Of a stretch of 9,541 nucleotides of DNA, positions 95 to 2,494 are shown in pieces. The stretch comes from a virus (taxonomy: Duplodnaviria; Heunggongvirae; Uroviricota; Caudoviricetes): the IMG/VR virus record IMGVR_UViG_2548876863_000015; one strand, given 5' to 3'. The position numbers were made by a program, and so were the translations under genes. The notes below the pieces were generated by a model, which made no database searches, was not told the origin of the DNA, and saw only the letters and a program-made list of their open reading frames with translations. The first letter of the stretch is position 1; every line of letters starts with the position of its first letter.

Positions 95-162
95 TTGTTC
101 GCCCTTGTTCGTCACAGTTCGCCCTTGTACGATGCACGGTGTAGTCAATGGTGTAGTTAATT
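95..162. repeat. Left arm module: four TTGTTCG-type heptamers at ~10-bp phasing plus tandem 12-mers GGTGTAGTCAAT / GGTGTAGTTAAT
   Basis: TTGTTCG at 95-101 and 105-111, variants AGTTCG at 116-121 and TTGTACG at 125-131; 12-mers at 139-150 and 151-162. The same module recurs at 9403-9460. Lies directly upstream of int. Confidence 0.55.
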
Positions 163-184
163 TTGATGACCGGAAACACGAAAC

Positions 185-1408
185 ATGAGCAGGGCAATTC
201 ATAGACTTAGCGACACTCTTTTACGAAAATTAAGCGGATCACCAACCACAAAAAGCACCTTTTTTAATGATGGTGGCAACCTTAGCGTAAGGCATTCAAC
301 CAATGGCCTGTTAACCTGGTATTTCACTTACAGGTCCGGAACTGGTAGGCAGATATCACCTGAACGTCTGAGGCTGGGAAATTATCCAGATTTGAGCCTG
401 AAAGCAGCCAGGGAAAAAGCGTCGCAATGTCGCGCATGGCTGGCTGAGGGGAAAAATCCGCGCTATGAACTTAATCATGCTGTACAGGACGCGTTAGCCC
501 CCGTGACGGTTAAGGAAGCGCTCACTTACTGGCTTGAATCGTACGCAAAGGAAAAGCGCACTGACTACGAATCACTGAAAAGCCGGATCAATAAACACAT
601 AATTAGCCAGATTGGAGCTATGCCACTGGAAAAATGCGAGCTACGCCACTGGCTGGCCTGTTTTGACCAGCTTGCTAAGCGTAATCCGGTATCAGCCGGA
701 TTTTTGCTACAGGTATGCAAACAGGCGCTTAAGTACTGCCGAAAACGACGATACGCAATCAGCAACGTTCTTGATGATATGGTTGTCGGTGATGTTGGGA
801 AAAAAGCAGAAATAAGCGAGCGCGTACTAACAAACAAGGAGCTTGGGGAATTACTACGCGCCCTTGATGAAAAAATTTACCCACCGTACTACAGCGCCCT
901 GATTCGCCTCCTGATTGTCTTCGGATGTCGTACCACTGAGCTAAGACGCTCTGAGGTCCAGGAATGGGATTTTAAAGAAATGCTCTGGACCGTGCCGAAA
1001 GAACACAGCAAAACGAAGGTAGCAATATTCAGGCCAATACCGGAAGCGATCTTGCCGTTTGTCATGAAGCTGGTGGAGCAGAACAGGCACACGGGCTTAT
1101 TGCTCGGAGAACTGAAAGGGCAATCATCCGTATCAGAGTACGGAAGAACGGCACACAGACGCATTAATCAAGCCCCCTGGACGTTGCACGACATCCGGCA
1201 CACGTTTACAACGATGCTGAACGATTTAGGCGTGGAACCGCATGTTGTGGAGCAGCTTACCGCGCACCAGTTGCCAGGAATGCAACGAGTCTATAATCAC
1301 TCCCGTTATCTTGATGCAAAACGTGACGCTCTTAATCTATGGGTTGAGCGCCTCGATGTGCTGGCTGGAAATCATGAAAATATTGTTATGCTGAAGGTGG
1401 CCAAATGA
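185..1408 (+). CDS. int: Tyrosine recombinase / integrase, P4-type (N-terminal arm-binding domain plus C-terminal catalytic domain)
   Basis: 407-aa ORF. N-terminus (LSD...GLLTWYFTYRSG...LGNYPDLSLKAAREKA) fits the arm-binding domain pattern of P4/CP4-57-type integrases. C-terminal part carries the catalytic Arg in TTELRRSE, the HDIRHTF (H-x-x-R) box and a terminal Tyr region (VYNHSRYLD). Weak SD. Confidence 0.9.
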   Translation: MSRAIHRLSDTLLRKLSGSPTTKSTFFNDGGNLSVRHSTNGLLTWYFTYRSGTGRQISPERLRLGNYPDLSLKAAREKASQCRAWLAEGKNPRYELNHAVQDALAPVTVKEALTYWLESYAKEKRTDYESLKSRINKHIISQIGAMPLEKCELRHWLACFDQLAKRNPVSAGFLLQVCKQALKYCRKRRYAISNVLDDMVVGDVGKKAEISERVLTNKELGELLRALDEKIYPPYYSALIRLLIVFGCRTTELRRSEVQEWDFKEMLWTVPKEHSKTKVAIFRPIPEAILPFVMKLVEQNRHTGLLLGELKGQSSVSEYGRTAHRRINQAPWTLHDIRHTFTTMLNDLGVEPHVVEQLTAHQLPGMQRVYNHSRYLDAKRDALNLWVERLDVLAGNHENIVMLKVAK

Positions 1409-2178
1409 AATTACCTAAAAGACTCTATTATCCGTTACCTGAAGCGGCAGAAAAGTTAGGCTGTGCAATAAAAGATCTTTATCATTACGCATATATAGGT
1501 GCTCTTAATATTTCTGTATATATACCAAAAATTGATGCTAAAAAATTCAATTTTTCATTATGTCATTTTATCAATGGTTGTAATGAGGAAGAATTAATAA
1601 AATATCCTTTCAATGATGAATCTGCTGTTTTTGGAAGTAATTTTACAGTTGGTTTAACTGGTGACACTGAATTTTTAGATAGTGCCATTATTGGTCCTGT
1701 AGGGAATTCTATCAAATGTTATTATGTTAGCAGCTTATCAGGGTTTTATTATACTCCGGCATATGTTTTTGCTGATGTCGAATTTAGCATGAGACAATAT
1801 ATAAAATGTTCTCATCTTACGAATAAGTATGGTGATGATAATCTCATGTATGTTTTTTGTAAGGGTGGTTATGAATTTGATGTTAACTATTTGTGTGTGA
1901 TGGCTAGTGATTTAGATAATATAAAAAATACGGGAGACTTCCCGAAGATAACAGAAGATAGCCCAAAAGCATCGTCAAAAAGGAATGAGGTTATTTACTC
2001 TTTAATTAAACTTATTCCAGAAATGGGTGATGTAGACCTGGACACGGAATCATTACCTAAAATAGCAGATTTAATTGATTCTATAGCTGCATCCAGAGGG
2101 ATAGAATTTCCAAAAACACATTGGCAGACATGGCAAAAGTATTTGGGGCGTGAATCTCAACAAAAACGTAAAAAGTGA
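1405..2178 (+). CDS. Hypothetical protein, 257 aa, AT-rich, no domain recognised; candidate accessory/cargo gene
   Basis: Start overlaps the int stop (ATGA at 1405-1408), suggesting translational coupling. Composition is visibly AT-rich (roughly one-third G+C by eye) against about half in flanking genes. Uninterrupted 257-codon frame, Tyr/Phe/Asn-rich, basic C-terminal tail (QQKRKK). No Walker, HEPN or nuclease motif recognised by eye. Confidence 0.7.
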   Translation: MKLPKRLYYPLPEAAEKLGCAIKDLYHYAYIGALNISVYIPKIDAKKFNFSLCHFINGCNEEELIKYPFNDESAVFGSNFTVGLTGDTEFLDSAIIGPVGNSIKCYYVSSLSGFYYTPAYVFADVEFSMRQYIKCSHLTNKYGDDNLMYVFCKGGYEFDVNYLCVMASDLDNIKNTGDFPKITEDSPKASSKRNEVIYSLIKLIPEMGDVDLDTESLPKIADLIDSIAASRGIEFPKTHWQTWQKYLGRESQQKRKK

Positions 2179-2203: not shown

Positions 2204-2234
2204 ACACAAACGGCGTTTTACTACCGCCTAGAAT

Positions 2235-2269
2235 CGTCCTCGTTCGGCAACGTTCGAGGACGTTTTTTT
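2235..2269 (+). terminator. Rho-independent terminator that also contains the alpA Shine-Dalgarno
   Basis: 8-bp stem CGTCCTCG (2235-2242) / CGAGGACG (2255-2262) with a 12-nt loop, followed by a T7 run (2263-2269) that abuts the alpA ATG at 2270. The only SD-like sequence for alpA (GAGGA, 2256-2260) lies in the 3' arm of the stem. Confidence 0.6.
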
Positions 2270-2494
2270 ATGAATCAAAATACACAATTTCAATCACTAT
2301 CAGATCGCGTAATCCGTGAGGATGAATGCCGTAAGTTAACAGGAGTGTGCCGCACTACACGCTACGAACTGGAGAAAAAAGGGAATTTCCCGTCACGCCG
2401 TAATCTGGGTGGTCGTTCAGTAGGTTGGCTGCTTTCCGAGGTTATGGAATGGGTTAAAAGCCGGGATCGTATTAATTCAGGTAAGGCAGCGTAG
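2270..2494 (+). CDS. alpA: AlpA-family transcriptional regulator / excisionase-like HTH protein
   Basis: 74-aa ORF. Motif ...CRKLTGVCRTTRYELEKKGNFPSRRNLGGRSVGWLLSEVMEWVKSR matches the AlpA / phage-regulatory HTH family pattern (L-TG-S--T-Y-----G-FP----LG-R-V-W--SEV--W). Position immediately downstream of int is typical for Gram-negative PICIs and P4-like islands. Confidence 0.8.
   Translation: MNQNTQFQSLSDRVIREDECRKLTGVCRTTRYELEKKGNFPSRRNLGGRSVGWLLSEVMEWVKSRDRINSGKAA

Follow-up and report, generated by a model that had tools for sequence, protein, structure and literature searches.

What does an open reading frame (ORF) of 257 codons do between the integrase gene int and alpA, the gene for the master activator, in a phage satellite? 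The ORF, here called ORF257, lies in the IMG/VR virus record IMGVR_UViG_2548876863_000015, a stretch of 9,541 bp that we analyzed as a whole and refer to as the window. The window is bounded by the att core direct repeat ATGATAGTTAT, seen in the sequence at positions 1-11 (left) and 9531-9541 (right), and since one copy lies at each end, it represents the entire island. It is a complete phage-inducible chromosomal island (PICI). An earlier note on this DNA had compared it to P4-like and PICI-type islands alike; gene content and gene order (int, ORF257 and alpA, then on to terS and a capsid-like gene) agree with the PICI type and not with P4. The same note had taken ORF257 for an orphan and a separately acquired piece of cargo, possibly directed against phages. 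Our analysis points elsewhere: ORF257 is very probably an integral and co-evolving part of an alternative int-alpA control module, and not arbitrary cargo.

ORF257 occupies positions 1405-2178 of the plus strand and encodes 257 amino acids from an ATG start. As had been claimed, it is coupled to int by an ATGA overlap: its start codon (1405-1407) overlaps the int stop codon TGA (1406-1408), and with the Shine-Dalgarno (SD)-like sequence GAAGGTGG upstream (1393-1400) this forms a translational-coupling junction at 1393-1408 (plus strand). The junction is kept as GAAGGTGnnnAAATGAAn in all loci where it is present, alongside the SD GAAGGTG and a conserved int tail that ends in N(I/V)xxLKVxK before the stop codon. 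The ATGA overlap itself is identical wherever the junction falls inside the fetched contig, with integrases down to 52% identity. Because of this coupling, the protein should be present in the quiescent island, and ORF257 is probably expressed with int in the integrated state. ORF257 is also, as the earlier note had seen, the most AT-rich gene of the island. Its GC content of 0.323 and its GC content at third codon positions of 0.213 are the lowest of the 16 island genes, the next-lowest gene having a GC content of 0.383 and the window minus ORF257 one of 0.472.

To place ORF257 among known proteins, we searched for homologues. With a word-indexed search we obtained 19 clusters (90% identity), all from Enterobacterales, all annotated as hypothetical and none with a Pfam domain. 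A profile search covering 1.84 billion representatives recovered 390 homologues at the 50%-representative level (E ≤ 1e-3), 54 of them at E ≤ 1e-30, with lengths of mostly 230-320 amino acids. ORF257 is thus no orphan. All 390 representatives are unnamed and without a Pfam domain, and the view that the product has no described function therefore stands. Similarly, we found no description of the family in the literature searched, where the PICI integration zone is treated as int plus alpA; later surveys also give this zone as int and alpA only (PMC10111431). No match to ORF257 was found by tblastn in 50,697 phage records, and no related locus was found in the species-representative genomes searched with alignment A1.

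The genomic context of the family is constant. The order int-ORF-alpA, with a P4-type int of about 407 codons, was found in 29 of 29 distinct loci examined. These comprise E. coli islands at the yljB and rcnR sites, Klebsiella capsid-forming PICIs (cf-PICIs) and loci from Providencia, Pantoea and Enterobacter, the remaining junctions coming from fis-site PICIs, IMG/VR, and metagenome and Logan contigs. Many family loci are "fis PICIs" of Williams and colleagues, and their left ends bear the complement of the fis identity block TACGGCATGAACTAA. The whole arrangement, with the int tail and SD and with the palindromes and hairpin described below, recurs in at least five genera and with int identities down to 52%. 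Furthermore, the low GC content is a property of the entire family (0.29-0.38, versus 0.39-0.52 in the adjacent int). Both observations contradict the one-off acquisition that had been proposed from the composition of ORF257. We consider the family an undescribed, Enterobacterales-wide one that forms an optional control module in the integration zone of Gram-negative PICIs.

Indeed, the module is dispensable. The full-length gene is present in 47 of 5,426 E. coli genomes. Close relatives at the same yljB site, with a 92% identical int, lack it and carry a 420-bp AT-rich non-coding spacer instead, which shows that it is not a core gene of all relatives; islands at roxA and tqsA, whose int is more distantly related, have only an empty spacer of 365 bp in the slot. 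Among the ORF-less islands, the slot was empty in five out of five, a small sample spread over three att sites, and no other cargo was seen between int and alpA in the related islands examined. The suggestion of a variable slot was thus correct as far as dispensability goes, but the slot is not a hotspot for diverse cargo: its variability is binary, the module being either present or replaced by an empty spacer. Two candidate occupants from the literature were rejected, EcCIMP1_002 being a small ORF between int and alpA that is unrelated to ORF257, and the Tai systems being located beside pri. Compared with the ORF-less relatives, the swapped segment spans the last ~15 codons of int to the first ~12 codons of alpA. 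Since its boundaries lie in the 3' end of int and the 5' end of alpA, the ORF, the palindromes, the hairpin and the alpA start travel as one module. The ORF-less islands examined jointly lack the ORF, the palindromes and the hairpin, and in one of them (L008) AlpA is identical from DRVIREDE onward and differs at the N terminus.

We then examined the elements between ORF257 and alpA. The earlier note had reported paired palindromes after the ORF. Two copies of GTGATATCAC are indeed present, but the first (palindrome 1, 2175-2184) overlaps the ORF257 stop codon (aaGTGA) instead of lying 3' of it; palindrome 2 (2196-2205) lies 21 bp from palindrome 1, which puts the two 10-bp elements two turns of the helix apart. 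These two matches compare with 0.27 expected, and two or more were seen in 8 of 200 shuffles. Paired GTGAwwTCAC palindromes 20-22 nt apart were found in every locus with the canonical C terminus of the protein. In all of these, palindrome 1 overlaps or directly follows the stop codon, and the pair is kept even where the flanking intergenic sequence is unrelated. Five loci with a divergent C terminus (L055, L056, L057, L066 and L070) have no palindromes and only ~50 nt before alpA, and L058-60 harbor a different palindrome pair, two copies of TGGAATATTCCA, likewise 21 bp apart. As the N-terminal winged helix-turn-helix (wHTH) domain described below is nearly constant, it cannot explain which palindromes a locus has. 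The C-terminal subtype correlates better with the palindrome type, but the two are tightly linked physically.

A scan of 100,044 species genomes for the palindrome pair gave 36 matches, mostly unrelated repeats in metagenome-assembled genomes. The enterobacterial matches in Pantoea and Enterobacter lie with a family member, and only the one in Trabulsiella does not. In this Trabulsiella guamensis locus (L046), the pair (1881-1911) lies 3' of a 294-amino-acid ORF that resembles a phage antirepressor by eye only, with no family member nearby. Three candidate functions of the palindromes were rejected. They are not sites for AlpA autoregulation, since the DNA-binding region of AlpA is identical in the palindrome-free L008; it is similar in the palindrome-free group of the family, too. 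The spacing does not suit CRP, being TGTGA-N2-TCACA and not N6, nor operators of the lambda type, being TATCAC-N11-GTGATA and not N5 (textbook consensus in both cases).

Downstream of the palindromes, the alpA leader forms a hairpin at 2235-2269 (plus strand), with a stem at 2235-2242/2255-2262, a 12-nt loop and a run of seven T at 2263-2269 that abuts the alpA ATG (2270). The 5' arm, CGTCCTCG, is an anti-SD, the loop is TTCGGCAACGTT, and the 3' arm, CGAGGACG, contains the alpA SD (GAGGA). The 8-bp GC-rich stem ends 7 nt before the ATG, and the free energy of the hairpin is -19 kcal/mol (z = -4.06). A simple terminator scan missed it because its loop is longer than 8 nt. The earlier note had placed a strong terminator before alpA, and in the window the hairpin does have the GC-rich stem and U-run of an intrinsic terminator. 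This holds for E. coli, where, as in some others, the T-run is good, but not for all genera: Klebsiella, Providencia and Pantoea have a poor run or none, the sequence after the stem being ATTTATCT in Klebsiella, AATCATTT in Providencia, ATGCCCCA in L051 and ATATCCAT in L052.

What is conserved is the pairing. Across loci, the stem measures 7-12 bp, its 3' arm is always the alpA SD (GAGGA, AGGAG, AGGGT or GGTGG) and its 5' arm the matching anti-SD. In an analysis of covariation over 10 loci, 94% of the cells were paired, compared to 34-48% in slid registers, and 8 of the 10 pairs showed compensatory changes. The covariation score was 0.733, versus 0.247 for shuffles, of which 0 out of 500 reached the observed value. 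In L078, a relative with 96% identity, there is a clean double change from GTCCTCG/CGAGGAC to GCCCTCG/CGAGGGC. To judge from these alignments, the conserved property of the hairpin is masking of the alpA ribosome-binding site (RBS), not termination. The hairpin is thus similar to known RBS-sequestering hairpins and intrinsic terminators in that its stem pairs the alpA SD with an anti-SD and, in E. coli, is followed by the T7 run. It differs from them by a 12-nt loop of conserved length that harbors a DNA-type direct repeat of flippable orientation.

This repeat, CGTTCG-GCAA-CGTTCG at 2241-2256 (plus strand), has the motif and the period of the att-arm repeats. In general, the 12-nt loop together with its closing pairs contains a direct repeat of 10-bp period (yGAACn-N4-yrAACn), of which the E. 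coli type is the flipped orientation. A GAAC/GTTC-N6-GAAC/GTTC repeat was found in 22 of 30 junctions versus 2% of the shuffles. The distance from the start of palindrome 2 to the first GAAC is 44 nt in 11 of 11 loci of the GAAC type and 46 nt in the flipped E. coli type, with 23-28 nt of unconserved sequence in between. The hairpin and the GAAC boxes also occur in family members without palindromes. In the spacers of the ORF-less islands L091-L094 (~40-100 nt after the int stop) and L008, we observed five to six tandem xAACA/GAAC repeats, again with a 10-bp period, which are candidate AlpA (autoactivation) or Int sites.

The stem is abutted by the hexamer TAGAAT (2229-2234, plus strand), which could be a -10-like element or, alternatively, the A-tract that partners the T-run. 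Of 15 non-redundant loci, 14 have an xAxxxT hexamer at this place. One option is that it represents a -10 element. Transcription would then start at the end of the 5' arm, the palindromes being centred near -40 and -61, and such transcripts would be without the anti-SD, while int read-through would carry a masked RBS. In L002, L051-L053, L062 and L065, an in-frame ATG lies inside the 5' arm of the hairpin, as a result of which gene callers sometimes give alpA an N-terminal extension of 12-13 amino acids. AlpA is called as 86 amino acids in L065, compared to 66-69 (downstream start) in L002 and L062. The downstream ATG, with its SD in the 3' arm, is the likelier true start of alpA.

We next modeled the protein with AlphaFold2 on the family alignment (mean predicted local distance difference test score [pLDDT], 78). 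The model comprises an N-terminal domain with a beta-alpha-alpha-beta wHTH of the excisionase/MerR type (amino acids 1-45, 1405-1539), a beta-rich, hypervariable middle domain (46-176, 1540-1932), a disordered linker (177-186) and a C-terminal domain of three helices and a basic tail (187-257, 1963-2178), all encoded on the plus strand. The C-terminal domain bears the motif G[IV]xxPxxxxTWxKYLGR. The mean pairwise identity in the family is 53% in the N-terminal, 24% in the middle and 55% in the C-terminal domain. Compared with the window protein, several E. coli and Salmonella members are 36-44%, 12-14% and 94-95% identical, respectively. More generally, middle domains are 12-23% identical where the C terminus is 94-95% identical, as expected if the middle domain sets partner specificity. 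Only G113, F114, E126 and L163 are invariant in it (alignment A1). With four invariant residues and no catalytic signature, the middle part is more likely a binding domain than an enzyme.

The N-terminal fold matches those of excisionases (Pukovnik Xis, 4j2n; RdfS, 8dgl; the GIsul2 excisionase, 8c3t; and Tn916 Xis) and has the beta-alpha-alpha-beta(-wing) topology over ~50 residues that defines the excisionase/MerR type. No fold match was found for the middle domain, and Foldseek against the PDB gave nothing at E ≤ 0.001. The lack of a recognizable motif, noted before, was borne out: when the full protein, each of its three segments and 68 members of the family were scanned against Pfam, PHROGs and PADLOC, nothing exceeded the thresholds. 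For the window protein, the only matches were marginal ones of PADLOC and PHROGs to the helix-turn-helix (HTH) within the first ~40 residues. The best PADLOC match was mad1 (E = 0.015, amino acids 8-34, the HTH region). HTH_17 matched weakly in 1 of 68 full-length members (E = 0.0026) and in 4 of 27 N-terminal segments (best E = 2e-4). No enzymatic, toxin or transmembrane domain was recognized in the protein. Descent of the N-terminal domain from a duplicated alpA was also considered and rejected, hhalign giving a probability of 1.9% with the island's AlpA. ORF257 thus shares its N-terminal fold with excisionase, AlpA and MerR wHTH proteins (HTH_17, Phage_AlpA), but it is much larger (257 amino acids, with two further domains), and no family member reaches the Pfam threshold. 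Overall, DNA binding is supported for the wHTH, and the C-terminal domain is a candidate for another DNA-binding domain, with the variable domain joining the two.

A split version of the protein was observed in Enterobacter vonholyi (L045, 2080-3570, minus strand of the fetched locus). There, the wHTH is a separate 71-amino-acid ORF, followed by a 225-amino-acid protein sharing only the C-terminal domain, two copies of TGTGATATCACA, a hairpin and an AlpA-family gene. The adjoining integrase appears truncated.

What could such a module do? We favor, with a probability of roughly 40%, the view that ORF257 encodes a DNA-binding regulator of the alpA switch that is coupled to int and senses phage through its variable domain. 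What we observed is the family with its synteny and domain mosaic, as well as the conservation of palindromes, spacing and hairpin; from this we infer DNA binding by the protein, the assignment of its domains to sites, the control of alpA and the sensing of phage. The protein would be made together with Int through translational coupling. Its C-terminal domain would contact the palindromes, the wHTH perhaps the GAAC boxes of the alpA leader, and this binding would set, by repression or activation, the expression of alpA, the master activator of the island cycle. The variable middle domain would recognize a helper-phage product. As a result, ORF257 would be a functional counterpart of Stl/Rpr of Gram-positive PICIs, without being homologous to them. 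This would fit published statements on Gram-negative PICIs, in which the global repressor is described as "unclear" and alpA transcription is said to be switched on by an unidentified helper-phage factor (PMC6092414).

A more specific version is tentative and, in our opinion, rather doubtful. In it, the family would supply a subset of Gram-negative PICIs with the phage-sensing switch that has been missing, in the form of a two-headed DNA-binding protein that bridges palindromes and GAAC boxes and keeps alpA off or poised. By binding a helper-phage protein, its hypervariable beta domain would determine the phages that can induce the island, and this non-homologous analogue of Stl would evolve by sensor swaps between fixed DNA-binding ends.

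The comparison with Stl, which is relieved by a helper-phage protein (summarized in PMC6092414), is one of layout. Like Stl/Rpr, ORF257 is encoded beside int and presumed to be co-expressed in the quiescent island, its protein combines an HTH with a highly divergent region for partner specificity, and it adjoins the gene or promoter that starts the satellite cycle. However, ORF257 has no sequence or fold similarity to Stl, is co-oriented with the regulated gene and not divergent from it, and has an HTH of the excisionase/MerR and not of the Cro/CI type. It is also found in only a minority of Gram-negative PICIs, and both repression and a phage partner are proposed by analogy.

Several observations weigh against an alpA regulator. 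The palindromes are no more than 250 bp away from the sequence coding for the C-terminal domain, so that the co-variation of the two could be linkage within one recombination block, and a host or helper-phage protein might be what binds the palindromes. L045 has canonical palindromes although its C-terminal sequence diverges and its N-terminal ORF is split, and the C-terminal fold is not recognizably DNA binding. GAAC repeats are not confined to the module, since they also occur in att arms and in the spacers of ORF-less islands and must be bound there by Int or AlpA, and the hexamer before the stem is equally well the A-tract partner of the T-run in a terminator. In the palindrome-free group there is no room for a separate alpA promoter, and a version of the model in which the promoter is controlled therefore cannot be general. 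Finally, most E. coli PICIs of the same int family work without ORF257, and according to the literature alpA of ORF-less islands is also phage inducible. ORF257 is thus not a universal switch.

Among the alternatives, stand-alone anti-phage defense or abortive-infection cargo in the 5' accessory region fares best, although we consider it unlikely. The variable middle domain would recognize phage proteins, and the protein would block infection. ORF257 resembles the single-gene defense systems of PICIs and P4 in its location at the satellite 5' end, its low GC content, its patchy occurrence as an accessory gene of few genomes and its variable region, and arms-race proteins typically have such a hypervariable, recombining domain. 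For a sentinel, constitutive co-expression with int would be fitting, and a passage in PMC11364771, which cites Fillol-Salom 2022, reports immune systems at the 5' or 3' ends of PICIs. Unlike those systems, however, ORF257 has no PADLOC-model match beyond the marginal one to its HTH, no defense-type or effector domain and few invariant residues, and the earlier suggestion of defense cargo was not supported by any homologue among the phage records either. Moreover, the slot held the family or nothing in our sample, without alternative systems in relatives, and the gene is tied across genera to int and to dedicated, conserved DNA and RNA elements that self-contained cargo would not need. The two explanations overlap and are compatible with each other, as a sensor firing alpA prematurely would itself interfere with the phage. 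If ORF257 proves to be a defense protein, its architecture is an unusual one.

It is even less probable that ORF257 is an integrase accessory protein or recombination-directionality factor (RDF), whose Xis-like N terminus would bind att-arm DNA or Int and bias integration versus excision. The excisionase-like fold, the coupling with int in all loci and the motif shared by the alpA-leader and att-arm repeats would agree with this. Nevertheless, the island already has AlpA, an Xis-type factor needed for PICI excision (PMC6092414), to which the protein shows no profile homology, and islands with a 92% identical int at the same att site manage without ORF257. Furthermore, known RDFs are small, single-domain proteins, and such a role would leave the palindromes at alpA and the hypervariable domain unexplained.

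The least probable explanation is that ORF257 is an unrelated passenger, linked only physically to palindromes and a hairpin that serve alpA control by AlpA, Int, host or helper-phage proteins. In its favor, the C-terminal coding region belongs to a single recombination block with the palindromes, the hairpin and the alpA 5' end, members without palindromes still have the hairpin and the GAAC boxes, and the C-terminal fold is not recognizably DNA binding. However, palindromes were seen in PICI contexts only beside family members (Trabulsiella being the sole enterobacterial exception), are missing from ORF-less islands and are built into the ORF stop codon in nearly all loci, and a passenger would not be expected to conserve its wHTH and C-terminal domain across 390 representatives.

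The remainder of the island is that of a PICI. It is inserted between yljB/cspD and clpS (in O157:H7, and in Shiga-toxigenic and other E. coli), and at least 80% of it is present in 38 of 5,426 complete E. coli genomes. int (185-1408, plus strand) encodes a P4-type tyrosine integrase of 407 amino acids with an arm-binding domain (Pfam Phage_integrase, 1.6e-17; Arm-DNA-bind_3, 2.1e-16), and alpA (2270-2494, plus strand) encodes the PICI master activator (Phage_AlpA, 3.4e-16). They are followed by a YlcI/YnfO-like gene on the minus strand and then by an icd-like gene, DUF4222, a P4-type primase, terS and the capsid-like gene.

Upstream of int, a 73-nt arm block (96-168, plus strand; direct repeat D4) contains three to four GTTCG repeats with a 10-bp period, followed by two copies of GGTGTAGTnA. 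It recurs co-oriented at 9394-9466 with 74% identity, and an extra GTTCG pair lies outside it at 24-40. A scan for GTTC-N6-GTTC found repeats at 24-40, 97-127 and 9405-9428 of the window, and in other genera GTTC repeats occur at equivalent positions upstream of int. In attL and attR, the blocks at the island ends presumably serve as arm-type or RDF sites. The fis-site PICIs L006, L056, L057, L063 and L066 have two or three copies of a motif at 25-50 nt upstream of int (GGTGTATCAC followed by G or T, or GTGCAGTCAG/GTGTAGTCAG), with variants in L084 and L002. It is similar in layout to the "doubled motif" TGTATTGC, which was reported for helper-embedded PICIs and stated not to be found in fis PICIs (PMC10111431).

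Three further sets of repeats were seen in the window. Two copies of GTGTAAGACA (at ~2829 and ~2875) and its reverse complement (~2901) flank TTGACG...TACATT in the divergent region (2825-2915) between the YlcI/YnfO-like gene (minus strand) and the icd-like gene. They resemble operators belonging to a second regulatory switch. In and upstream of the terS frame, at 7033-7058 and 7275-7312, there are short tandem coding repeats, AAAAAGTTACAC (peptide KKVTKKVTEKVT). Finally, the non-coding stretch 3' of the capsid-like gene (8660-9330) is dense in repeats: 88 nt at 8695/9232 (95%), 28 nt at 8669/8787 (96%), 47-72 nt at 8823/9029/9083 and three copies of GCGCAAAATTGC. They could be packaging or origin sequences, or repetitive extragenic palindromic (REP)-like elements.

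Taken together, a protein family and an alpA leader structure, both undescribed, can be added here to the known regulatory modules of satellites. How helper phages switch on Gram-negative PICIs is an open question, and the ORF257 module represents a testable handle on it for a subset of islands that includes the Klebsiella cf-PICIs and islands in Shiga-toxigenic E. coli. The covarying hairpin over the alpA RBS is a new regulatory element regardless of the role of the protein. Should the variable domain set helper specificity, it would help to predict which phages mobilize which islands.

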